A stretch of DNA of 49,526 nt. It comes from Escherichia phage Henu7. The translations under genes and the position numbers were made by a program. Positions 4,060-49,147 of this stretch are shown here, piece by piece; position 1 is the first letter of the stretch; each line of letters starts with the position of its first letter. The stretch is from the sequence record NC_054894.1; one strand, written 5' to 3'. The notes beneath the pieces were generated by a model. That model was not told the origin of the DNA. It saw only the letters and a list, made by a program, of their open reading frames with translations, and did not search any database.

Positions 4060-4500
4060 TTAGCTATTTGTGCTGTTTATGAAGTCCGACTCTTTCACTA
4101 CGCGCAGCATTTCGTATCGGTCACATTTCGTCGTTAGCGCTTTGCCGTTTGAGTCAAATCTCAGATCTGGACGGCAGAATGAAGCGCGATAGCCCTTGCA
4201 GCCGTTTCGCTTATAGTCGGCGTGAACCTTTTCGGCTCCAGAAACGGAAATCATTCCGCGCTTGCGCCACTGCTGGATAACCTGGTGAGTAACCTTTAAG
4301 CGCCTTGTCATTTCTGCCTGAGATCCGTAATATTCGCAAACGGCATCCAGACGAGCACGCAATCCGGCTTTGACTTCATCCTTTAGAACGTAGTAGCCTG
4401 TTTTTCGCTTGCGCTTTTTCTTGTCCTTACCGCGCTTTACACCGTTGTTGCCATTGATTGTGCGCTTGTCAATTTCGCCAGTTGATGCAGCAATTTTCAT
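4060..4500 (-). CDS. helix-turn-helix DNA-binding protein (candidate early regulator)
   Basis: Start at ATG 4500 with GGAGG RBS; basic region KDKKKRKRK; HTH-like segment SQAEMTRRLKVTHQVIQQWRKRG. Confidence 0.55.
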   Translation of the reverse strand: MKIAASTGEIDKRTINGNNGVKRGKDKKKRKRKTGYYVLKDEVKAGLRARLDAVCEYYGSQAEMTRRLKVTHQVIQQWRKRGMISVSGAEKVHADYKRNGCKGYRASFCRPDLRFDSNGKALTTKCDRYEMLRVVKESDFINSTNS

Positions 4501-4513
4501 ATTAAAACCTCCG

Positions 4514-4532
4514 ATAGCACTTTTTGCTAAAA
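4514..4532 (+). promoter_or_regulatory. palindromic element TAGCA-N5-TGCTA in divergent region between HTH gene and helicase
   Basis: ATAGCACTTTTTGCTAAAA; TATTAT hexamer 22 nt downstream at 4552..4557. Confidence 0.45.
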
Positions 4533-4589
4533 ACATTCAAAACGTATGCGCTATTATACATTCAATCGGTTAACGAATAAAGGTTAAAA

Positions 4590-6590
4590 ATGGCAATTCC
4601 AAACATTGATAAACAGCTTTCCGCCTTGGGTGAGGCGGTAATCAAGGCAATTCAAAATCGCTTTACGTTTGGCGAAATCACCCCATACCCTTACCAGTGC
4701 GTTGCTTACACTGAGATCGCAAAACGCATGAAAAATTACGAGCATCCTTTCTTTGTGAAAGCGTCCGTATCTGCTGGCAAAACCATGATTTTTGCAATGG
4801 TAGCGGCTCAGTGCCAGAGAATGGGGCTTAAAATGATGGTTCTTGCTCGCCAGGGTGAGATCGTAGATCAGGATTCAGAGGAGATCAGTAATTTCGGCGT
4901 GCCTAACTCCGTTTACTGCGCGGCGCTGAAACTCAAGGGAGTACACTTCCCCATCGTTGTTGGTTCCGAGGGAACCGTTTCAAATGGACTCTTTAAGGCG
5001 CTTGGTGACTACGTGCCACACGTTATCGGGATTGACGAATGCCACCAAGTAGATTGGGAGGATTTAGCGGAGGCAATCGAAAACGAGGAGCCGTGGGAGC
5101 AAATGACCACGAAAAAAGGCGAGATTGTCCTGAATGGTGACGGATCCCGCGCTCTAAACAATGACGGCGAACCAATGGAGGGAACCGGACGCACGCAGTA
5201 CACGCTTATCATTCGTGAAATGCAGCGCCGATGCAAAGAGACATACGGGCATGAGTTGCGCATTTTTGGAATGACCGGATCTGAGTTTCGCGGCGTGGTT
5301 CCAATCCTGGTGGAAGATAAGCGCCAGCGCGGATTCTGGCGCGAGCAGGTAACGAACATTGATACCAACTACCTGATCAAGTTCGGCTCCGTTGTGCCTA
5401 CAAACTTTGGCTGCGTAGATGGGTTGGGTTATGACCTTTCAGAGTTCACGGCATCCAGCGAGGACGGCGTAGCAGACTTTGACCAGAAAACCCTCAGGAA
5501 GATGGAGGAGAAGATCCATAAAGATGCAACCATGACGCAAAAAATCATGGCACGCGTTCATGAGATCTGCAAAGACCGCAACGGCGTGCTGGTAACTTGC
5601 GCGGGTGAGCGTCACTGTAAAGAGGCCGCCGCCGCACTTCCGCCAGGGGCAACATACAGGATCATCACTGGCAAGACCGGAGAGAAACAACGTAAGGAAT
5701 GGTTAAAAGAGGCATTCGAGGGAAAAGTAAAATACATTTTCCAGGTTCAAGCACTAACAACTGGCGTAAACGTTCCATATTGGGATACTTCCGTTATCCT
5801 GCGCAAAATAGGATCGCTTACACTGCTGATCCAGCTTTTGGGGCGCGGTATGCGACTGTTAAAGAAATGGCACATTGAGCAAGGATTTAAAAAAGACGAT
5901 CACCTTGTTCTCGACTTTGCCGGATGTATGGACGAGTTGGGGCAACTTTACTTTGATCCTATTCTGGAACAAGCGCAGTATCAGCGCCGTGGCGACAACG
6001 GAAAAGATCCTAAATTCTGCCCTGACTGCGGCACGGAAAACTCATTCTATGCACGCCGTTGCGTTCACGTTGACGAAAACGGAAATCGCTGTGAGTATTT
6101 CTGGAAGTATCGAGAGTGCGAGGATCAGGTAGACCCGCGAACGAAAAAGGTTGTCGTTAAAGGTTGCGGCACTAAAAACGACATATCAGCTAGAATTTGC
6201 CGTTGCTGTGACGTGTCGCTTATTGACCCTAACGAAAAGTTATCCGGCAAGCACTACACTAAAAACGATTGGTGTAATGTAAAATCATTCAGAGTTGACA
6301 TGACCAAAAACCAGCGCGGGATCGTGTTCTGTTATGAGCTTGAGTCTCACGGCGAAACGTTCAAAGCTTATGAGCGATTCTTCCCTGAGTCTGACAACCA
6401 GATCTGCAAGACGCTATGGAGGCAAACGGCGCTCAAGCATATTGCAGATCGCAGGATTGCAGGTGTTACTGCGAGCTATCGCAACGCTCGCAAGATTATG
6501 CAAAACGCGCATCACATTATGGCTCCGAAACGCGTTACGCATCGCAAAAACGCGAAAGGAGAGGACATTATTTATCATCGGGAGTTTTGA
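4590..6590 (+). CDS. SF2 DNA helicase (DExH-box) with C-terminal zinc ribbons
   Basis: Walker A SVSAGKT; DECH box (GIDECHQ); Cys-rich C-terminal clusters CPDCG...C..C. Confidence 0.75.
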   Translation: MAIPNIDKQLSALGEAVIKAIQNRFTFGEITPYPYQCVAYTEIAKRMKNYEHPFFVKASVSAGKTMIFAMVAAQCQRMGLKMMVLARQGEIVDQDSEEISNFGVPNSVYCAALKLKGVHFPIVVGSEGTVSNGLFKALGDYVPHVIGIDECHQVDWEDLAEAIENEEPWEQMTTKKGEIVLNGDGSRALNNDGEPMEGTGRTQYTLIIREMQRRCKETYGHELRIFGMTGSEFRGVVPILVEDKRQRGFWREQVTNIDTNYLIKFGSVVPTNFGCVDGLGYDLSEFTASSEDGVADFDQKTLRKMEEKIHKDATMTQKIMARVHEICKDRNGVLVTCAGERHCKEAAAALPPGATYRIITGKTGEKQRKEWLKEAFEGKVKYIFQVQALTTGVNVPYWDTSVILRKIGSLTLLIQLLGRGMRLLKKWHIEQGFKKDDHLVLDFAGCMDELGQLYFDPILEQAQYQRRGDNGKDPKFCPDCGTENSFYARRCVHVDENGNRCEYFWKYRECEDQVDPRTKKVVVKGCGTKNDISARICRCCDVSLIDPNEKLSGKHYTKNDWCNVKSFRVDMTKNQRGIVFCYELESHGETFKAYERFFPESDNQICKTLWRQTALKHIADRRIAGVTASYRNARKIMQNAHHIMAPKRVTHRKNAKGEDIIYHREF

Positions 6591-6592
6591 AT

Positions 6593-7009
6593 ATGGTTAC
6601 TGACAAAGGCGATTATCTGGAATATTACGAACGGGATCCGAGCGACACACGCAAGGAGGATTCACACCAGGTTGATTGTGTGGCGTGGTTGCGCCACCAT
6701 TACCCACACTTGCTCTTTTGGCACACTGTTAATGAGGGGAGCAAGACGATCACCACCGCGCTGCGTGACGAACAGGCCGGATTGCTAAAAGGAGTATCCG
6801 ACTTTGTTATCCTGATTGGTTCTGGTAAATACCCGTTTGCAGCAATAGAGCTAAAGCAAGCCAACAAATCAGGGAAGCGCAAAGCCTCACCAGTCAGCGA
6901 TAACCAGAAAGCTTTCTTGAGCAAGGTCAGAGCGCTTGGTGGATTTGCCGCTGTGTGTTATGGCGTTAAGCAATTCAAGATTGCGATCTCAGATCTTTTA
7001 TGTGAATAG
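6593..7009 (+). CDS. VRR-NUC domain nuclease
   Basis: Start ATG 6593 with GGAG RBS right after helicase stop; motifs GVSDFVIL and AAIELK are PD-(D/E)xK-like. Confidence 0.65.
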   Translation: MVTDKGDYLEYYERDPSDTRKEDSHQVDCVAWLRHHYPHLLFWHTVNEGSKTITTALRDEQAGLLKGVSDFVILIGSGKYPFAAIELKQANKSGKRKASPVSDNQKAFLSKVRALGGFAAVCYGVKQFKIAISDLLCE

Positions 7010-7024
7010 CACTTTTTGCTAAAA
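7006..7024 (+). promoter_or_regulatory. palindromic element plus hairpin upstream of lipoprotein gene
   Basis: ATAGCACTTTTTGCTAAAA, hairpin GGCGCAAAGGAATGCGCC, CATAAT at 7044..7049, leader CAACGAAACAAAC. Confidence 0.45.
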
Positions 7025-7081
7025 CAGGCGCAAAGGAATGCGCCATAATGCACCCAACGAAACAAACACGGAGAATTAACC

Positions 7082-7360
7082 ATGAAAAAGATGTTATCAG
7101 TAGTTGCTTTATCGCTTTCCATTGTCGGTTGCATGGATAAACCAAAAGCATATATTTGCGGAAATGAAGTGTTTGAGGTTACAAGCGAATACATGAAAGT
7201 TGTAAAAGGTAAAAACACAGGCGTTGTAATGGATAATATCAGCAAAAATAAATACAAGCTGTTTACGCCAATTGGAACAGCTTTTTACACTGTTAACGAT
7301 AGCACAATTGATGTTAGAGTCGGAATCTTTCAGCACACTTTAACTTGCGAGGTGAAATAA
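7082..7360 (+). CDS. small lipoprotein (moron; candidate superinfection-exclusion protein)
   Basis: Signal peptide with lipobox LSIVGC; AT-rich codon usage relative to neighbours; own upstream regulatory unit. Confidence 0.6.
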   Translation: MKKMLSVVALSLSIVGCMDKPKAYICGNEVFEVTSEYMKVVKGKNTGVVMDNISKNKYKLFTPIGTAFYTVNDSTIDVRVGIFQHTLTCEVK

Positions 7361-7361
7361 A

Positions 7362-7498
7362 ATGGCTAAAGACATTCTGGACAACTCAACAATTGATGGT
7401 ATCGAGCAGGTTGATGAAATGGACTTTCACGAATTGCAGCACGGCAAGTATTCAGACATAGCCCTGCGCTCAGGCGGTCATTACCAGGCCGTGAAACC
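7362..7498 (+). CDS. ORF upstream of methyltransferase, probably its N-terminal part separated by an 8-bp tandem duplication
   Basis: Strong RBS GAGGTG before ATG 7362; reading frame runs to 7703; deleting one copy of ACAAGGTT (7510..7525) fuses it in frame to the methyltransferase. Confidence 0.4.
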
Positions 7499-8116
7499 AT
7501 GCCAGTATTACAAGGTTACAAGGTTACAGGCAACCGTTACGCCGGAAGCAACACTCCAGATGTTGTCCGTGACCTTTGGGCTACTCCGCGCGATGTTGTC
7601 GCGTATATGGAAAGCCGCTACGGTAAATATGATCTTGATGCTGCGGCTAGCGAGGACAATAAAGTCTGTGAAAAATTCTACAGCAAGGAAACAAACTGCT
7701 TAAAGCGTTGGTGGGGTAGCAAGAAGCACGTATGGCTGAATCCTCCATATTCGAATCCAGATCCGTTTGTGCTCAAGGCCATTGAGCAAATGGAGCACGA
7801 AAACCAGATCGACATATTGCTTCCAGCCGATAACTCAACGGCATGGTTTAGCGATGCGCAGAAACATGCTGCGGAAATCATCTGGATTACTGGCGAAACC
7901 TGGAAAGATGAAGAAGGGCGCGAATATTCCCGAACCGGACGATTAGCGTTTATTTCCGGCCTGACAGGTGAGCCAGTTAGCGGCAACAACAAAGGCAGTG
8001 TGATCTTTGTGATGCGCAAATTGAAAGAGGGAGAAACGCAACAAACTCACTACGTGAAAATCAGCGATATTTGCCCGTCTGTAAAAAACAAGCGAGCCAA
8101 AGCAAGGAGTTTTTAA
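7499..8116 (+). CDS. DNA N6-adenine methyltransferase (phage Dam-like)
   Basis: Motifs DLWATPRDV, DLDAAAS and NPPYS typical of phage Dam-family amino-methyltransferases; weak RBS at 7499. Confidence 0.7.
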   Translation: MPVLQGYKVTGNRYAGSNTPDVVRDLWATPRDVVAYMESRYGKYDLDAAASEDNKVCEKFYSKETNCLKRWWGSKKHVWLNPPYSNPDPFVLKAIEQMEHENQIDILLPADNSTAWFSDAQKHAAEIIWITGETWKDEEGREYSRTGRLAFISGLTGEPVSGNNKGSVIFVMRKLKEGETQQTHYVKISDICPSVKNKRAKARSF

Positions 8117-8226
8117 TGAAAGATGATATTTCAGCACTTGGAATGCTTTGTGCATTCATGATCGGCGGCGGTTTTTGTTCTTACGCGCTCATTGCGCTAA
8201 TCATCAAAATAGTGGAGTTGATTTAA
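8116..8226 (+). CDS. 36-aa hydrophobic membrane peptide
   Basis: AAGGAG RBS; ATG overlaps the methyltransferase stop (TAATG); sequence MKDDISALGMLCAFMIGGGFCSYALIALIIKIVELI; not in ORF track because of length. Confidence 0.45.
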   Translation: MKDDISALGMLCAFMIGGGFCSYALIALIIKIVELI

Positions 8227-10726: not shown

Positions 10727-11221
10727 ATGAGTTTACAGAGAAGCGCGGCATACGCTTTATTTGGCGCTGCGCTCTCGTTAACTTCTCCACTCCTGGAGGA
10801 GATCGAGGGCATCCGGTACAAGCCTTATAAAGATATTGCAGGAATCTGGACAGTCTGCGCGGGTATTACCGGATCTGACGTTGTGCTTGGTAAGACGTAC
10901 ACGCAGAGAGAATGTGACGCACTTCTTGCCAAGCATATCGGGATTGCAAAGGCAGAAGTCGATAAGCGCGTAAAGGTTGAGATACCGGACACTATGCGTG
11001 CGGCAATGTACTCCTTTACGTACAACGCTGGTACTGGAGCGTTTCGCAAGTCAACCATGCTCAAGAAGATCAACAATGGCGATCTTTATGGGGCGTGCGA
11101 CGAGCTTTGGAAATGGACGTATTACTACAATCCAAAAACGGGCAAGCGCGAGAAGTCCAAAGGTTTAAAAAACCGTCGCGCGGTTGAGTATAAATATTGC
11201 ACTAAGGATCTGAAAAAATGA
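10727..11221 (+). CDS. SAR endolysin (T4-lysozyme-type glycoside hydrolase with N-terminal signal-anchor-release domain)
   Basis: Gly/Ala-rich N-terminal hydrophobic domain; catalytic E-x8-D-x5-T pattern [22 protein letters not shown] like phage 21 R and T4 lysozyme. Confidence 0.8.
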
Positions 11222-13774: not shown

Positions 13775-13795
13775 TTGGCAATTCGTGCTATTTTA
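13775..13795 (-). promoter_or_regulatory. palindromic element plus hairpin plus TATAAT upstream of P-loop gene
   Basis: Minus strand reads AAAATAGCACGAATTGCCAAAA, hairpin GGTTGACC-TATAAT-ACGGGTCAACC, RBS AAGGAG. Confidence 0.45.
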
Positions 13796-16944: not shown

Positions 16945-16965
16945 TTTTAGCAAAAAGTGCTATTC
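16945..16965 (-). promoter_or_regulatory. palindromic element plus CATAAT upstream of leftward early operon
   Basis: Minus strand reads GAATAGCACTTTTTGCTAAAA, then CATAAT, then leader. Confidence 0.45.
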
Positions 16966-19333: not shown

Positions 19334-19352
19334 ATAGCACGAATTGCTAAAA
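19334..19352 (+). promoter_or_regulatory. palindromic element plus hairpin containing TATAGT
   Basis: ATAGCACGAATTGCTAAAA, hairpin GGGGTTGCGC-TATAGT-AACCCC, leader ATCGAAACGAAAC. Confidence 0.45.
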
Positions 19353-42603: not shown

Positions 42604-42622
42604 ACAGCACAAATTGTTAAAA
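42604..42622 (+). promoter_or_regulatory. degenerate palindromic element upstream of J-like gene
   Basis: ACAGCACAAATTGTTAAAA, preceded by hairpin GGTTGC-TATAAT-GCAACC at 42581..42598. Confidence 0.35.
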
Positions 42623-42637
42623 CTGGAGGCCAAAACT

Positions 42638-45600
42638 ATGATAAGCGGCAATAAGGGCGGCTCCTCTAAGCCGTATACGCCAAAGGAGATGGAGGATAAC
42701 CTGATCTCCATCAACAAAATCAAGATCCTCCTGGCGGTTTCAGACGGAGAGGTAGACGGCGAGTTTTCGCTAAAAAATCTCTACCTTGACGACGTGCCAG
42801 TGCAAAACGCAGACGGCTCGCTTAACTATAGCGGTGTTAGTGCTGAGTTCCGGCCAGGCACTCAAACGCAGGACTACATCAAGGGATTTTCAGACACGTC
42901 AAGCGAAGTAACAATTCAGCGAGATCTGGCGCAGAATAACCCTTACAGCATTGCGGTAACAAACAAATCACTATCTGCTATCAGGATCAAAATCCTGATG
43001 CCTCAGGGATACAAGCAGGAGGATAACGGCGATCTGGTTGGTGTATCAGTGCAATACGCGGTTGATATGGCTGTAGACGGCGGCTCATTCAAGCGAGTTC
43101 TGACTGATACGATCACTGGCAAGACAAAAAGCGGCTACGACCGCAGCCAGCGAATCGACCTGCCAGCATTCAACGAGCAGGTGATTTTGCGCGTTAGCCG
43201 AATCACGCCGGACTCTAACACAGGACGAGTTGTTGACGCGATCAGATTGCAGAGCTATGCGGAGGTTGTTGATGCAAAATTCCGTTACCCTCTGACTGGT
43301 CTTGTTTATGTTGAGTTTGATAGCGAGCTTTTCCCGACTCAGCTACCGAACATTTCTATCAAGAAGAAATGGAAGCTGATCAAGGTTCCTGTTAACTACG
43401 ATCCAGATTCGCGCACCTATAGCGGATCATGGAATGGTTTATTCAAGACTGCGTGGAGCAATAACCCTGCCTGGGTTCTGTATGACCTGATCACCAATCA
43501 GCGCTACGGACTCGACCAAAGGGAGCTTGGGATTGAGATCGACAAGTGGAGCATCTACGAGGCTGCGCAATATTGCGATCAGATGGTTCCAGATGGCAAG
43601 GGAGGTTTAGAGCCTCGCTATCTTTGTGATGTGGTTATCCAGAGCCAGATTGAGGCGTTTAACCTTATCCGCGATATTTGCTCAATCTTCCGTGGTATGA
43701 GCTTTTGGAACGGCGAGAGCCTTTCTATCGTGGTGGATAAGCCGCGCGATCCGTCTTACATTTTCAGCAATGACAACGTGGTAAACGGCGATTTTCAGTA
43801 CACATTTGCTAGCGAGAAAAGCATGTATACGCAGTGCAACGTGACTTTCGACGACGAGCAAAACATGTACAGCCAGGATATTGAGGGCGTTTTCGACACT
43901 GAGGCCGCTTTGCGTTTTGGTCACAATCCGACAAGTATCACAGCAATCGGATGCACACGACGCAGCGAGGCGAACCGACGAGGGCGCTGGATTCTCAAGA
44001 CTAACCTGCGCAGCACTACGGTAAACTTTGCAACAGGTCTTGAGGGTATGATCCCGACAATCGGAGACGTGATCGCAATCGCGGATAACTTCTGGTCAAG
44101 TAACTTGACGCTGAATCTTTCGGGGCGCGTCATGGAGGTTTCAGGGCTGCAAGTTTTCCTCCCGTTCCGAGTTGATGCGCGGCCTGGTGATTTTATCCTG
44201 ATAAACAAGCCGGACGGAAAGCCAGTTAAGCGCACTATCTCACGAGTTAGCGCAGACGGGAAAACTATTGAGTTAAACGTTGGCTTTGGTTTCGACGTTA
44301 AGCCGGACACGGTTTTCGCAATCGACAGGACTGATCTTGCGTTGCAGCAGTACGTTGTTACCGGAATAACAAGGGGCGACGATACGGAGCAATTCACGTA
44401 CTCAATAACGGCGGTCGAATACGATCCAAACAAGTACGACGAGATTGATTACGGAGTGAACATTGACGACAGGCCAACAAGCATTGTAAACCCTGGAGTG
44501 ATGAGAGCGCCTGAAAATGTGCAGGTGTCCTCTTACTCTCGCATTGTTCAGGGGCAGAGCGTAGAAACGATGGTTGTTAGCTGGGATAAAGTCGAATACG
44601 CAAGCTTGTACGATGTGCAATGGAGAAAGGACAATAGCAACTGGCTAAACGTTCCTCAGACTGCAAACAAAGAGGTTAGCGTTGAGGGTATTTACTCAGG
44701 CAACTACTTTGTAAGGGTTCGATCAGTATCCGCTTCTGGAAGCACATCGCCTTGGTCTGGCGTTGTTTCCGCCGCATTAACTGGCAAGGTTGGAGAGCCT
44801 AAAATGCCTATTAACTTGACAGCCTCAGATAATGAGATATTTGGGATCCGCGTCAAGTGGGGTATGCCGGAGGGTGCTGGAGATACTGCTTACATAGAGC
44901 TACAGCAAGCGCCGGACGTAGACGGAATGGCTAGCGAAGAAAACGCAACACTGCTAACTCTCGTTCCGTATCCTCAAATGGAGTATTGGCACGCAACGTT
45001 ACCACCTGGATATATCAACTGGTATCGAGTGCGAAGTGTTGACAGGATCGGAAACGTTTCTGCATGGACTGACTTTGTGCGCGGTATGTCGTCAACTAAC
45101 GTTGATGATGTTTTAGGCGACATTCTTGATGATATTTTAAACTCTGCTGGGTTTGAGGAGTTCAAAGAGAATGCCGTAGATACTGCAAACAAGGTTAAAG
45201 ACCAGGCGCAAAGCGTGATCCAGAATGCGCTAGCTATTGATACTAATCTACGCTGGAACCGAGTAGAAAACGGGAAGCGTAAAGCGGAGCACGGACAGGC
45301 GCTGGAGCTTATCGCTAACGAGACTGAGGCGCGAATTCAGGCGGTTGATGTTCTGCGCACTGAGTTTGACGAGGGTATCTCCTCTAACATTACAGAGGTT
45401 AAAACCCTTATCTCTAACGAGGCGGAGACGCGAGCGAGCCAGGTTCAGCAGCTTGAATCTACGTTCACAACAGAGATCGGAAAGACAAACGCAAACGTGA
45501 GTAGCGCACAGCAAGCGATTGCAAAAGAGACTGAGGCAAGGACTCAAGCGGTTAGCTCTCTTGACTCCAAGTTTACAGGGCAGATCAATGGCGTTAAGCA

Positions 45601-46174
45601 GGATTTATCCTCAAACGTCACGAGGTTGGATCAGTCTATCGCGAGCGAGACTCAAGCGAGATCCAGTGCTGACACTGCGTTGTCAACTCGTGTTGGTAAA
45701 ACTGAATCGGCAATTACTCAGAAGCTTGACTCTTGGGTAGACAACGGATCTATAGGTGCTCAGTACGCTCTCAAGCTTGGGATTAAACGTGCTGGTGTTG
45801 AGTACACGGCTGGAGTTTCGCTATCGCTAATCCAGTCAGGTAGCGAGATAAAATCTCAATTCCTGGTTGATGCGGCGAGGTTCGGGGTAATGACTAGGCA
45901 GGGAGGAAGCTACACATTGCCGTTTGTAGTTGATAATGGAACGGTTATCATGAATACGGCGCTAATTAAAAACGGCTCTATAACCAACGCAATGATTGGT
46001 AACGTGATTCAGTCAAATAATTATGTTGCTGGCAAGTCCGGTTGGAGGCTGGACAAAAACGGAAACCTTGAGATCAATGGCAGCGCCGGAAATGGCAGAC
46101 TGACCATTAACAATAACATTATCGCGGTTTACGATGGTAATGGTGTCTTGAGGGTTCGAATGGGGTTGTTCTAA
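42638..46174 (+). CDS. tail tip / central tail fibre protein (lambda J-like host specificity protein)
   Basis: About 1178 aa after M/L/K/I; RBS GGAGG; C-terminal region with ETEAR-type repeats. Confidence 0.8.
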   Translation: MISGNKGGSSKPYTPKEMEDNLISINKIKILLAVSDGEVDGEFSLKNLYLDDVPVQNADGSLNYSGVSAEFRPGTQTQDYIKGFSDTSSEVTIQRDLAQNNPYSIAVTNKSLSAIRIKILMPQGYKQEDNGDLVGVSVQYAVDMAVDGGSFKRVLTDTITGKTKSGYDRSQRIDLPAFNEQVILRVSRITPDSNTGRVVDAIRLQSYAEVVDAKFRYPLTGLVYVEFDSELFPTQLPNISIKKKWKLIKVPVNYDPDSRTYSGSWNGLFKTAWSNNPAWVLYDLITNQRYGLDQRELGIEIDKWSIYEAAQYCDQMVPDGKGGLEPRYLCDVVIQSQIEAFNLIRDICSIFRGMSFWNGESLSIVVDKPRDPSYIFSNDNVVNGDFQYTFASEKSMYTQCNVTFDDEQNMYSQDIEGVFDTEAALRFGHNPTSITAIGCTRRSEANRRGRWILKTNLRSTTVNFATGLEGMIPTIGDVIAIADNFWSSNLTLNLSGRVMEVSGLQVFLPFRVDARPGDFILINKPDGKPVKRTISRVSADGKTIELNVGFGFDVKPDTVFAIDRTDLALQQYVVTGITRGDDTEQFTYSITAVEYDPNKYDEIDYGVNIDDRPTSIVNPGVMRAPENVQVSSYSRIVQGQSVETMVVSWDKVEYASLYDVQWRKDNSNWLNVPQTANKEVSVEGIYSGNYFVRVRSVSASGSTSPWSGVVSAALTGKVGEPKMPINLTASDNEIFGIRVKWGMPEGAGDTAYIELQQAPDVDGMASEENATLLTLVPYPQMEYWHATLPPGYINWYRVRSVDRIGNVSAWTDFVRGMSSTNVDDVLGDILDDILNSAGFEEFKENAVDTANKVKDQAQSVIQNALAIDTNLRWNRVENGKRKAEHGQALELIANETEARIQAVDVLRTEFDEGISSNITEVKTLISNEAETRASQVQQLESTFTTEIGKTNANVSSAQQAIAKETEARTQAVSSLDSKFTGQINGVKQDLSSNVTRLDQSIASETQARSSADTALSTRVGKTESAITQKLDSWVDNGSIGAQYALKLGIKRAGVEYTAGVSLSLIQSGSEIKSQFLVDAARFGVMTRQGGSYTLPFVVDNGTVIMNTALIKNGSITNAMIGNVIQSNNYVAGKSGWRLDKNGNLEINGSAGNGRLTINNNIIAVYDGNGVLRVRMGLF

Positions 46175-46179
46175 CAGAA

Positions 46180-46209
46180 AAGGGAGCCTTGCGGCTCCCT
46201 CTTTTTTTA
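46180..46209. terminator. intrinsic terminator between convergent J-like gene and leftward gene
   Basis: Hairpin GGGAGCCTTGCGGCTCCC followed by TCTTTTTTT. Confidence 0.7.
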
Positions 46210-46539
46210 CATCAATTTGTTGTGGTCAACAGGGATTCTGTTTGTTTGCTTGGTGATCATATCAAGCTTGTATTCATCGCCGCGCTTCCACTCGAATCGA
46301 AGGGTATACGTGTTAGCGTCACCGTAGCACATTACGTGCTTGAATTTTCGCAAGTGCTTATCAAAGATCGCGTTTGTGCTCTCCTCAATCTTCAACGTCC
46401 GATCTGAGCAGTTTACAACGGCGACGGTTGAGCCAGTAAGAGACATTCTGGAAGCTTCAACCGGATAGCCGATATTAACGTTCAAAGCCATAGCGTTTAA
46501 GGGAGCTACAAGAGCCATAGCGAGCATGATTTTTTTCAT
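46207..46539 (-). CDS. secreted/periplasmic small protein (candidate superinfection-exclusion or receptor-masking factor)
   Basis: Start ATG 46539 (MKKIMLAMALVAPLNAMA...) with signal peptide; own regulatory unit upstream on minus strand. Confidence 0.55.
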   Translation of the reverse strand: MKKIMLAMALVAPLNAMALNVNIGYPVEASRMSLTGSTVAVVNCSDRTLKIEESTNAIFDKHLRKFKHVMCYGDANTYTLRFEWKRGDEYKLDMITKQTNRIPVDHNKLM

Positions 46540-46596
46540 TTGCATTTCCTCGTTTCGTTAAGTTGAAATGAGTATAGCCCCATTTGCGTGGCTTGT

Positions 46597-46614
46597 TTTA
46601 GCAATTTGTGCGGT
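46597..46614 (-). promoter_or_regulatory. palindromic element plus TATACT
   Basis: Minus strand reads CCGCACAAATTGCTAAAA, then TATACT and leader AACGAAACGAGGA. Confidence 0.4.
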
Positions 46615-47267
46615 TAGTTGTAACCCTGGAATTTTGCGTATGGTATTTTGAGGTTTCCGCGCCCGTTAAATATTTCAGAGAAAGATCGCTGGTTTCTTCT
46701 GATCCAGTATGTCTGCAACTGCGAACCAGTCCAGCGCATGAGGTTTCCTGAATAACCCTGCGTTTCTCCGTCGTCGCTCCATTCGCCGTAGCAGGCATCC
46801 CAGAGAAAGAATGGGTTAAAACCTGGAGTCACTGAGGCAACGTTAGCCTCAAGGTTGAATGAAGCCGGAACGTCAAGGAATCCCATTATTCGAGGCATTG
46901 TTGCGGCGCTAGCGGCAGTCCAAACAAGATTACCGGAAGCGTCGAATACGTCGAGATAGCCTGACGTAAGCGCCTTGTTTCTCGAAGTCCTGATTATCCT
47001 GATTGCGTTAGTGCTGAACATATCCGCGCCAGGGTAGCCCCACTGGTTATTACCTGTAAACTGAATCCAGGTTAGAAAGCCATCCTTGCGCTTATCACCA
47101 TCGCGAAGATTGCCAAGGGCTTTAACGTTGCCAAATGGCGTGCTTAGGCTGTAAGCCCCAACGTCAATTAGCGGTTGCGGAGTGTAGATAGAATCAAAGA
47201 TCGTATGCTTTTGATCTGAGTTGATCAGGACAACACCCGCGTTATTACGTACCTCAAAGCCTGACAT
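46614..47267 (-). CDS. hypothetical protein, paralog of next gene (possible tail-fibre-associated)
   Basis: Shares DASGNLV motif with 47276..47581. Confidence 0.45.
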   Translation of the reverse strand: MSGFEVRNNAGVVLINSDQKHTIFDSIYTPQPLIDVGAYSLSTPFGNVKALGNLRDGDKRKDGFLTWIQFTGNNQWGYPGADMFSTNAIRIIRTSRNKALTSGYLDVFDASGNLVWTAASAATMPRIMGFLDVPASFNLEANVASVTPGFNPFFLWDACYGEWSDDGETQGYSGNLMRWTGSQLQTYWIRRNQRSFSEIFNGRGNLKIPYAKFQGYN

Positions 47268-47275
47268 AAAGCCTC

Positions 47276-47581
47276 CTAGTTAAACATGTAAACTTCAATG
47301 GTAAGAGTCTGATCAACAAGCGGATTGCTTGTTGGCAGGTAAAGAACATCAACGCCGCCGTTTCTCGTCACGGCTGCATAGCTTGGTTTATACACAGCGC
47401 CAGCAGATGCCGCCATGACAACCGCGAACGAGTTGGAACCAGTCAGCCCAGCTACGTTGAAAGAAACCGCGCGAGTAGTTCGCGGGAATGAAATGTTTTG
47501 CCGGACAACAAAGCGCGTACTGAAATCGCCAAGATCGACAACCAGGTTTCCGCTTGCATCCCAGGCTTGAAGACCAGGCAT
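47276..47581 (-). CDS. hypothetical protein (DASGNLV motif)
   Basis: Motif WDASGNLVVD; first gene of a leftward unit transcribed out of the AT-rich control region. Confidence 0.45.
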   Translation of the reverse strand: MPGLQAWDASGNLVVDLGDFSTRFVVRQNISFPRTTRAVSFNVAGLTGSNSFAVVMAASAGAVYKPSYAAVTRNGGVDVLYLPTSNPLVDQTLTIEVYMFN

Positions 47582-47769
47582 AATGCCACCTCTCTAGTTT
47601 GCTTATTAAGTGCATTTAATATACAGGCGCGGCGTAATCATTTCAATGGCAAATGCAAAACCTTACCTTGATTGTTCTTTTTGTTTCTCGATGTTCTCTA
47701 TTGCGCCCACCGCAGAATCGCACAACGTTTCAGAACAGAAAAAACAAAATAAATCATCTATAATATATA

Positions 47770-47815
47770 ATAAAATCAATAGTTTAGTTTATATGTATTT
47801 GTATATTGTTATTTA
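47770..47815. repeat. AT-rich conserved element, copy 2
   Basis: ATAAAATCAATAGTTTA identical to 17254..17270, followed by a similar TTTATATGTATTTGTATATTGTT tract. Confidence 0.7.
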
Positions 47816-48030
47816 TTGTTTCCAGTGTTTCAGTGTTAATTGATGTACTGGCTTTCTTTAGTCTTGATATCTCTATTATCCATTTGATGTGTGTATTTAT
47901 ATAAACCCCACCGCAAATCCGTGAACAATGAAACAAAAAATAACGACGTTTAAAATCATTCACTTAAGAGCTGATTTTGTTATCGAGGTTGAAAGATGTG
48001 TTTCGAGAACAGAAAAAACAATTGAAGGTA

Positions 48031-48058
48031 TTGACTAAACGCCACAAATGGCTACAAT
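48031..48058 (+). promoter_or_regulatory. candidate sigma70 promoter for recombination operon
   Basis: TTGACT, 16-nt spacer, TACAAT, about 30 nt upstream of RBS CAGGAG and ATG 48089. Confidence 0.5.
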
Positions 48059-48088
48059 GCACGTATACCAACACACAGGAGCGAAAGA

Positions 48089-49147
48089 ATGAGTGAGTTT
48101 AAAGTTTTCACTAGCGCAGAAATGCCGAACGAGGTTTATCACGATCCGAATAGCTGGACGGCTGAGTACACAAGCGGATCGAATCTGGCTGAGGTTTTCC
48201 AGTCCTCCCCCGCATCCTGGAAATTTAAGGAGCGAGACGAAAACGCAAAGCCGCTAATTTTCGGCACTCAGTCGCATACAAACTTTGAGAGCAAGGCACT
48301 GTTTGAGGCTCAATATCGCAGAGCGCCAGCGCCGGAGGACTTCAAAGATCTTATTACCAGCCAAACGGCTCTCGCTGCGAAATTGAAATCTTTCGGCCTG
48401 AAAGGTACAAGCGGGAAGCAGTATCCAGATCTGATTAAGATGATGGTTGATTGTGGTGAGGATTTGCAGGTTCAATGGCTGATTGAAATGATCGCAGAAT
48501 CCGAAGCGCGTGCGGCTGGGGTTGAGCTTGTAAACGCAAAAGATTATGACGCTTGCGTAGCCATGCGCCAGGTTCTTGAGTCGATACCAGAGCACAATGC
48601 GTGCATGAATAGCCCAACAGCACAGCGCGAGCTTTCGATTTTCGGTGTTATCAATGGCGTTAAGGTTAAAGTACGACTTGATCACATTGACGAATGCGAA
48701 AACGTAGAGTTTACGCTAATCACTGGATATGACGACAAAGGACAGCCGATTTGCGAGGACGTTATTTATCCTGAGGCTATTGTGATCACGGACTATAAAA
48801 CCACAATGAGCGCCAATCCTCTTGAATTTGAGCGCCTGGCATTCAATCACGGCTACTATTTAAAAATGGCCTTGCAGCATGATTTATTCCGCAAGGCTTA
48901 CCCGAACGAAACGCGCCCCGTAGTGGTTCGACTTCTGGCGCAGGAGAAGAAAAAGCCTTACTTGCCGCTGGCGTACCGAATGAACAGCGAGCAACTCAAG
49001 ATCGGGCGCATTCAGTACATGAGCGTAATCAATCAGTTTGCAATGTGCCAGGCGCATAACATCTGGCCTTCATACGCAAACGGAGCGCCGGAGGTTTCGC
49101 TTACTACTCCTGATTGGGTTCGCCGCCAATACAAAGAATTTCTGTAA
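48089..49147 (+). CDS. PD-(D/E)xK family exonuclease (recombination exonuclease partner of ERF)
   Basis: Motif ITDYKT followed by YY..Q, typical of RecB/Cas4-like nuclease motif III; located upstream of ERF and SSB. Confidence 0.55.
   Translation: MSEFKVFTSAEMPNEVYHDPNSWTAEYTSGSNLAEVFQSSPASWKFKERDENAKPLIFGTQSHTNFESKALFEAQYRRAPAPEDFKDLITSQTALAAKLKSFGLKGTSGKQYPDLIKMMVDCGEDLQVQWLIEMIAESEARAAGVELVNAKDYDACVAMRQVLESIPEHNACMNSPTAQRELSIFGVINGVKVKVRLDHIDECENVEFTLITGYDDKGQPICEDVIYPEAIVITDYKTTMSANPLEFERLAFNHGYYLKMALQHDLFRKAYPNETRPVVVRLLAQEKKKPYLPLAYRMNSEQLKIGRIQYMSVINQFAMCQAHNIWPSYANGAPEVSLTTPDWVRRQYKEFL

Follow-up and report, generated by a model that had tools for sequence, protein, structure and literature searches.

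A conserved lipoprotein gene between the VRR-NUC and dam genes of Escherichia phage Henu7 and its possible receptor-independent role in the periplasm

What does a small, AT-rich lipoprotein gene do in the DNA-metabolism block of a T1-like phage? The question is raised by an open reading frame (ORF) of 92 codons that lies directly upstream of dam in Escherichia phage Henu7 (NC_054894.1; the whole stretch of 49,526 nucleotides is referred to here as the window). From its letters alone, this ORF had been interpreted as a horizontally acquired lipoprotein moron with its own regulatory unit, whose product might exclude superinfecting phages by inactivating the outer-membrane receptor, as Cor and Llp do. 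The comparison with related phages indicates that it is an ordinary, widespread conserved hypothetical gene of the T1-like phages (Drexlerviridae). Our preferred, still tentative, reading is that it is a conserved accessory gene of this family, encoding a lipid-anchored barrel with a receptor-independent role in the periplasm.

A widespread lipoprotein with a predicted barrel fold

The N-terminus of the protein, MKKMLSVVALSLSIVGC, was parsed as MKK-MLSVVALSLS-IVG-C17 and presents the features of a class II signal peptide: a basic n-region (K2, K3), an uncharged h-region (a core of 12 residues) and a lipobox of the form [LVI][ASTVI][GAS]C, here I-V-G-C at positions -3 to +1, with the cysteine (Cys17) inside the 15-35 interval. 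The PROSITE PS51257-type lipobox rule is satisfied by MKKMLSVVALSLSIVGC on direct reading. Residues M1, K2, K3, G16, C17 and C26 were invariant and C89 nearly invariant in an alignment of 26 sequences, the lipobox and both cysteines (C26 and C89) were also present in nine more distant homologues, and G16-C17 did not vary in any of 35 homologues. The identification of a 92-aa protein with a lipobox was borne out, both by its class II signal peptide and by the conservation of G16-C17.

An AlphaFold2 model based on the 26-sequence alignment (mean predicted local distance difference test, pLDDT, 85; predicted template modeling score 0.71; pLDDT 93-96 over residues 21-92) showed eight consecutive antiparallel strands between residues 22 and 88, forming a barrel domain of residues 22-92 that is separated from Cys17 by a tether of only about four residues. 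In the model C26 is placed at the end of strand 1 and C89 just after strand 8; a disulfide closing the barrel between them is likely, and would fit a periplasmic location. The barrel fold was preserved in the protein of phage ESCO41 (34-35% identity), with a template modeling score of 0.73.

The family corresponds to PHROG 7420, annotated as of unknown function. Full-length homologues were detected by tblastn in 271 of 50,697 phage records, 209 of which are Klebsiella phages (those inspected being Webervirus); the others included Tlsvirus (TLS, LL5), Salmonella and Citrobacter relatives and Henuseptimavirus, with divergent carriers in Nouzillyvirus ESCO41 (about 35% identity) and in an unclassified Tempevirinae lineage (26% identity). 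Clustering of the family at 90% identity gave 26 clusters, and among 1.84 billion proteins 11 representatives at 50% identity were found; members of the family were seen only in phage records or phage-like contigs. In all of the 12 Drexlerviridae loci inspected the lipoprotein gene was directly upstream of dam, and VRR-NUC was found upstream of it, usually directly, wherever the contig reached; this VRR-NUC/dam slot is used in Henuseptimavirus, Tlsvirus, Webervirus, Nouzillyvirus and the unclassified Tempevirinae. Henu7 itself was placed in Henuseptimavirus (Drexlerviridae, Tempevirinae), the genus of Escherichia phage IsaakIselin (Bas10) and Enterobacter phage vB_EclS_AS5, to which the DNA stretch 6400-8200 is 95.8% and 94.5% identical, respectively.

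The ratio of nonsynonymous to synonymous substitution rates (dN/dS) for the lipoprotein gene versus the LL5 and GH-K3 orthologues was 0.15-0.21, indicating from these alignments that the gene is under purifying selection; together with the 271 phage records holding a full-length homologue, this argues for a real gene and not a chance ORF. No study of the lipoprotein gene was found in the literature on the repeat sequence described below, on Drexlerviridae lipoproteins or on accessory regions.

One family member was located outside Drexlerviridae: P0030, of 90 aa (L012 4001-4273, from a Logan SRR30884457 contig), is carried by an unrelated group of ~60-kb coliphages resembling PTXU04 and HelliStehle (Bas95), among small early genes near the PhoH and polynucleotide-kinase genes and behind a canonical TTGACG-17-TATATT promoter. 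Its presence there implies that the lipoprotein cassette has moved between phage families. A match of the family profile (E 2.6e-8) to P0034, a LapA/RTX adhesin of 3231 aa with 13 repeats, was set aside as repeat-driven and probably not homologous.

Low GC content as a probable maintained property

The AT-richness relative to the flanks, pointed out in the sequence-only reading, was confirmed when GC and GC3 (GC at third codon positions) were analyzed. The lipoprotein gene has a GC of 0.351 and a GC3 of 0.355, versus a GC of 0.476 for the VRR-NUC and dam flanks, a GC3 of 0.52 for VRR-NUC and a GC of 0.482 for the window, and its stretch ranked second lowest in GC among 83 ORF-sized units (mean 0.479, sd 0.036). 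A low GC3 (0.33-0.36) was kept in three lineages whose synonymous sites are saturated (synonymous divergence, dS, 1.1-1.25); since it persists at dS above 1, it points to a maintained property and not to an import that has yet to ameliorate.

Relation to the receptor-blocking lipoproteins Cor, Llp and Rtp45

In small siphophages, the characterized lipoproteins that exclude superinfection are believed to correspond to the receptor and to have their genes next to the receptor-binding ones (PMC8594841; PMC13164509; bioRxiv 10.1101/2025.07.07.663478). In Henu7 a protein of this type would bind the outer-membrane receptor of the phage itself (YncD) on its periplasmic side and disable it. Some general features agree: the gene encodes, in a T1-like phage, a small early lipoprotein that has two conserved cysteines, and Cor (T1, phi80, N15) and Llp (T5), which block FhuA, share with it the small size, the class II signal peptide and the presence of conserved cysteines. 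Cor and Llp are produced in the infected cell, where they face the periplasm, and the same would hold, to judge from its sequence, for the Henu7 lipoprotein. Rtp45, the LptD-blocking protein of phage Rtp, belongs to the same family Drexlerviridae and is also a small lipoprotein with an internal disulfide (PMC13164509; bioRxiv 10.1101/2025.07.07.663478).

The similarity did not extend to the mature domain. The match to the PHROG Cor family (phrog_1119), which counts in favor of this explanation, was weak (E 0.016) and covered residues 1-43 only, and the hhalign alignment with T1 Cor was limited to 33 columns, covering the signal peptide and a short piece beyond it. The mature Henu7 domain, of about 8.4 kDa, is an eight-stranded barrel in the model, versus the ~6-7 kDa of Cor and Llp, and neither Cor nor Llp appeared among the listed fold matches: Llp was not among the 50 PDB matches listed by Foldseek, in which the scoring of each reference chain is unconfirmed, and the BFVD matches listed held only the lipoprotein's own family. 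Rtp45, of about 6 kDa, inserts a long beta-hairpin into the lumen of LptD and has the receptor-binding protein Rtp44 as its partner (bioRxiv 10.1101/2025.07.07.663478), whereas the Henu7 lipoprotein is predicted as a closed barrel and is encoded elsewhere in the genome.

Neither position nor distribution followed the receptor. On the T1 map the J-like tail gene is followed, at a distance of about 1 kb, by cor; the Henu7 lipoprotein gene is 39 kb from the receptor-binding locus, with no J or receptor-binding gene adjacent to it. The receptor is YncD for IsaakIselin and TolC for TLS, LL5 and DanielBernoulli (PMC8594841), and all four phages carry the lipoprotein gene, the TLS and LL5 alleles being 84-86% identical to the window or IsaakIselin protein despite the different receptors. 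Conversely, NBD2 shares the two receptor-binding genes at 95% identity and has no lipoprotein gene, and AS5, whose lipoprotein is 98% identical, is missing from the 20 records matched by the receptor-binding locus. No co-variation of the lipoprotein with receptor specificity was therefore seen. The replacement of alleles between otherwise similar phages, described in the next section, is what would be expected of a specificity determinant; nevertheless, the distance, the Cor match restricted to the signal peptide, the receptor mismatch and the cases of NBD2 and AS5 make a receptor-matched blocker very unlikely, and the proposed analogy with Cor and Llp found no support.

A better positional candidate for the cognate YncD exclusion factor is a 112-aa protein (phrog_25729, unknown function) with a cleavable-looking, non-lipoprotein signal peptide, MQMKKIMLAMALVAPLNAMA, whose gene lies directly downstream of J beside two genes of the receptor-binding locus and is preceded by a repeat unit with 2 mismatches. 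BLASTP detected no similarity between the lipoprotein and this secreted protein.

A polymorphic slot between VRR-NUC and dam

In T1, JohannLBurckhardt (Bas11) and NBD2 the VRR-NUC gene is followed directly by dam, without the lipoprotein gene, and the DNA match of phage Samwise is in two pieces, with a gap of about 270 bp over the lipoprotein gene. In N5822 and BubbaBully the slot holds instead two other genes, both preceded by repeat units of their own; the products are a protein of 149 aa with a signal anchor at its N-terminus and a protein of 84 aa with two hydrophobic segments. Of the 84-aa gene, Bas11 (L003 2150-2200) retains no more than the final ~45 nt, a remnant implying that the Bas11 arrangement arose by deletion. 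In one metagenomic relative the lipoprotein gene is preceded by an additional 76-aa gene and an additional unit. The second unit of N5822 has a hairpin, GCCGGAT..ATCCGGC, that reappears upstream of the lipoprotein gene in another place, the metagenomic contig L011, and because of this recurrence the units appear to travel with the cassettes.

The alleles of the lipoprotein also differ in history from their neighbors. Between K50PH164C1 and Bas10 the identity was 80% for VRR-NUC, 79% for Dam and 29% for the lipoprotein, and between LL5 and Bas10 it was 61% for VRR-NUC and 86% for the lipoprotein. Judged from these sequence comparisons, it is correct to describe the lipoprotein alleles as mosaic and the gene as an accessory cassette in a recombination-prone slot. 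A polymorphic accessory slot is supported by these data; the proposed horizontal acquisition, as a recent foreign import, is not, in view of the common slot across genera and of the low GC3 at saturation.

The upstream repeat unit is a family-wide element

A complete unit of palindrome, hairpin and ATAAT had been described ahead of the gene, and all of its parts were indeed present (7007-7021, 7027-7044 and 7045-7049). The repeat, ATAGCACTTTTTGCTAAAA, starts 76 nt before the lipoprotein ATG (7082) and contains the palindrome TAGCA-N5-TGCTA (TAGCA 7007-7011, TGCTA 7017-7021). What did not hold is that the unit is the gene's own: the window has 18 near-identical copies of the repeat at no more than 1 mismatch, versus none in 20 shuffles, and in 15 of the 18 a TATAAT-like hexamer follows exactly 19 nt after the repeat. 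The unit at the VRR-NUC end directly precedes dam in phages that have no lipoprotein gene (T1, JohannLBurckhardt), and in the window the lipoprotein stop (7358-7360) is not separated from the dam ATG (7362) by any unit or terminator, a junction arranged in the same way in IsaakIselin, GH-K3, LL5 and ESCO41. Because the unit is present without the gene and none lies between the gene and dam, the lipoprotein gene shares it with dam and does not own it.

The passage on repeats in the TLS report describes a 21-nt sequence, aaATAGCACnnnTTGnTAAAA, found 21 times at about 76 nt ahead of start codons, refers to similar repeats in T1, Rtp and Rogue1, and suggests a role as stoperator, enhancer site or UP element (German, Kropinski and Misra 2024, PMC11447400). 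The unit ahead of the lipoprotein gene shares the exact consensus, the orientation and the ~76-nt distance to the start codon with the TLS direct repeat; that passage gives the 21-nt repeat, with the terminators listed separately, and the palindrome, the conserved hairpin and the 19-nt offset of the hexamer are features added here (PMC11447400).

At the orthologous site of eight phages the hairpin showed compensatory double changes in four of its six pairs, with 97.9% of the cells paired; no slid register came close, and several pairs were G-U. On this covariation it is the structure of the hairpin, not its sequence, that is conserved, and the G-U pairs favor a role at the RNA level on the sense strand. 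The equivalent hairpin is annotated as a rho-independent terminator in the T1 record. The unit was not picked up as a promoter when the sigma-70 consensus was scanned for, since a distance of 22 nt separates TTGCTA from CATAAT; if transcription started about 7 nt after the hexamer, the center of the palindrome would be near -42, which would correspond to the geometry of a class II activator site.

Other copies of the repeat are found, for example, at 4514, 8475, 18307, 19334, 20737 and 24208 on the plus strand, and at 16963, 16623, 15793, 14489 and 13791 on the minus strand. Two types of hairpin were distinguished, one with the stem between the repeat and the hexamer (7006, 8475, 14489, 18307) and one with the stem enclosing the hexamer (GGGGTT..TATAGT..AACCCC at 19334; GTTGACC TATAAT ACG GGTCAAC at 13791). 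About half of the units have a TGn before the hexamer (extended -10), and most overlap the TAG stop of the preceding gene.

Repeated units that combine a promoter with a stem-loop are reportedly known from T4 as well, where the PeSL (promoter-early stem-loop) elements are said by Arbiol et al. in 2010 to be mobile regulatory cassettes. The likeness is that small variable genes, as cassettes that are gained, lost and swapped, are surrounded by such units in both cases; the T4 PeSL differs in sequence and in phage family, and a recombination role of the Henu7 units is suggested by the cassette boundaries.

These findings bear on the alternative that the gene is a classical moron, recently acquired with an autonomous promoter and terminator and conferring a host-fitness trait of the Bor/Iss type. 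Morons, as reportedly defined by Juhala et al. in 2000, are extra genes forming an autonomous unit of atypical composition. The Henu7 gene lies between genes that are adjacent in relatives (T1, JohannLBurckhardt, NBD2), being present or absent between conserved neighbors, and its low GC (0.351 versus 0.476 in the flanks) is atypical; the homologue behind a canonical promoter in the unrelated PTXU04-like coliphage also speaks for a moron. The autonomous unit, however, was not found: the upstream sequence is the phage's generic repeat, which occurs without the gene, and no terminator follows, with 1 nt between the stop and dam. Moreover, at least four genera have the gene in this slot, and no Pfam Bor match was obtained. 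We know of no temperate members of the T1-like family, so there would be no prophage state in which to express a moron. Taken with its supporting points, this explanation appears highly improbable.

The proposed role and its alternatives

If the gene is, as we prefer, a conserved accessory gene for a lipid-anchored periplasmic barrel, it would be co-transcribed with dam from the intergenic unit that is standard in the family and lies at the VRR-NUC end (palindromic repeat, GC hairpin and -10-like hexamer), with early-to-middle expression of the lipoprotein. To judge from its signal peptide, the product would leave the cytoplasm through Sec, receive its lipid at Cys17 and be processed by signal peptidase II. 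A residue other than Asp at position +2 predicts sorting to the outer membrane, and this residue is Met, Ser or Gly in the main clade; Lol sorting would then most likely be to the inner leaflet of the outer membrane. The mature part, of 76 residues, is predicted to fold into a compact eight-stranded barrel, its first and last strands probably locked by C26-C89, which the tether of about four residues would keep against the membrane. There the barrel may act as a module for protein binding or inhibition, directed at an envelope component that Enterobacteriaceae share, which is the weakest step, and the function would be receptor-independent protection or exclusion in the periplasm of the infected cell, and not a block of the phage's own receptor. 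Support from the sequence and the model is strong for the predicted export, lipidation and fold steps, and weak for the target and the phenotype.

This role is supported by the other envelope-directed proteins that fill the slot in N5822 and BubbaBully, and by the different receptors (YncD, TolC) used by the carriers. Several observations weigh against it. The lipoprotein has no annotated homologue, and Pfam, NCBIfam and PADLOC scans of it and of three distant homologues returned only signal-peptide noise, the weak NCBIfam and PHROG matches being confined to the signal peptides. Sorting to the outer membrane is not universal, as two distant homologues carry Asp at +2 (CDNK), and the very short tether may hamper Lol sorting. 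The unit is only a putative promoter for the lipoprotein gene, and the 29% identity of the lipoproteins between near-identical flanks would also fit a fast-evolving protein with a specific target.

Among the other alternatives, the main one with some structural support is an inhibitor of peptidoglycan hydrolases resembling MliC or PliC, which would act as an analogue of T4 Spackle against the muralytic activity of incoming tails, or would restrain the phage's own endolysin (ORF 10727-11221). The antiparallel barrel of eight strands that characterizes MliC and PliC was present in the model, and the Henu7 barrel resembled PliC/MliC and generic calycin barrels weakly. The resemblance to MliC, PliC and PhiA, which are periplasmic or lipid-anchored lysozyme inhibitors, appears to be generic: identity was 6-10%, no Pfam MliC match was obtained even at E 0.1 (0 families at E <= 0.1), and the likeness was no better than that to avidins or lipocalins, as these and designed barrels scored equally, suggesting similarity at the level of topology. 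A Foldseek search of the PDB gave nothing at E <= 0.001, the matches listed after PhiA being sliding-clamp noise, and a profile search of PDB sequences gave only insignificant matches to OspA. In addition, we know of no inhibitor of T4-type (GH24) lysozymes with this fold, which counts against an inhibitor of this kind; we consider it distinctly unlikely. A role as o-spanin was rejected, since the lysis cassette is at ~10.5-11.6 kb and the lipoprotein fold is a barrel.

A more ambitious form of the receptor-independent role, unlikely as it stands, is that the lipoprotein represents a new class of envelope effectors, namely lipid-anchored periplasmic inhibitors of a step common to incoming phages or toxins, encoded by an exchangeable cassette between palindrome/hairpin units. 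A muralytic or channel-forming activity would be a candidate target, with the lipoprotein as a structural newcomer in the job of T4 Spackle.

The locus is of modest interest, because its fold and position differ from those of the known phage exclusion lipoproteins and because the cassette slot is bounded by a family-wide repeat; what had been taken for a private regulatory unit proved to be an element found across the family, in which a palindrome is combined with a covarying hairpin and a -10-like hexamer at a fixed offset. If the lipoprotein does alter the envelope of the infected cell, it could reveal an exclusion mechanism independent of the phage's own receptor, and cross-exclusion could affect the compatibility of phages in cocktails; the carrier family, Drexlerviridae, in which nearly every phage has the lipoprotein, includes many Klebsiella Weberviruses that are considered for therapy.

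Features of the locus

The coordinates of the lipoprotein gene, its neighbors and the receptor-binding region are given in Table 1.

Table 1. Features of the lipoprotein locus and of related regions; coordinates are those of the window unless another source is named.
Feature	Coordinates	Strand	Basis or remark
Regulator gene	4060-4536	-	Local gene order, first of the block
Helicase gene	4590-6590		Local gene order; between the regulator and VRR-NUC
VRR-NUC nuclease gene, 138 aa	6593..7009	+	Pfam PF08774, E 1.5e-13
Family-wide direct repeat of 19-21 nt, ATAGCACTTTTTGCTAAAA	7006..7024	+	0 mismatches to the TLS consensus aaATAGCACnnnTTGnTAAAA
GC-rich hairpin GGCGCA-AAGGAA-TGCGCC	7027..7044	+	Minimum free energy structure
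-10-like hexamer CATAAT (ATAAT 7045-7049)	7044..7049	+	19 nt after the repeat
A/C-rich leader GCACCCAACGAAACAAACAC	7050..7081	+	CAaCGAAAC-type leader, recurs behind most units
Lipoprotein ORF, 92 codons, ATG start	7082-7360	+	Direct reading
Lipoprotein signal peptide, residues 1-16, MKKMLSVVALSLSIVG	7082..7129	+	Sequence reading, alignment
Predicted mature lipoprotein, Cys17-Lys92, 76 residues	7130..7357	+	phrog_7420, E 5e-50
Junction TAA-A-ATG	7358..7364	+	Lipoprotein stop 7358-7360, 1 nt before dam ATG 7362
dam (N6-adenine methyltransferase)	7362..8116	+	Downstream, co-oriented
J	42614-46174		
Receptor-binding locus	46207-47581		
112-aa protein, phrog_25729	46207-46545	-	Cleavable-looking non-lipoprotein signal peptide MQMKKIMLAMALVAPLNAMA
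Alternative slot cassettes	L002 2180-2955 (N5822); L016 (BubbaBully)		Each gene with its own upstream repeat unit

The start codon of VRR-NUC was set by analogy with bas10_0035, and its TAG stop (7007-7009) is inside the repeat unit. A Shine-Dalgarno sequence, GGAG (7070-7073), precedes the lipoprotein ATG by 8 nt. On the opposite strand, the ORFs 6958-7257 and 7109-7336 are side products of the high AT content.

The dam gene of the window is broken by an 8-bp tandem duplication at 7510-7525 (ACAAGGTT twice), which results in the frames 7362-7703 and 7499-8116, while IsaakIselin, JohannLBurckhardt and AS5 have a single copy of ACAAGGTT and an intact Dam of 248 aa. Both frames match phrog_111, and the second (Pfam PF05869, E 1e-62) keeps the entire Pfam Dam domain behind an internal ATG; the split could be a true frameshift mutation or an assembly error.

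The segment with the lowest GC in the window (about 0.31) is a seemingly non-coding region at 47600-48080, between the receptor-binding locus and a recE-like exonuclease gene (48089-49147).
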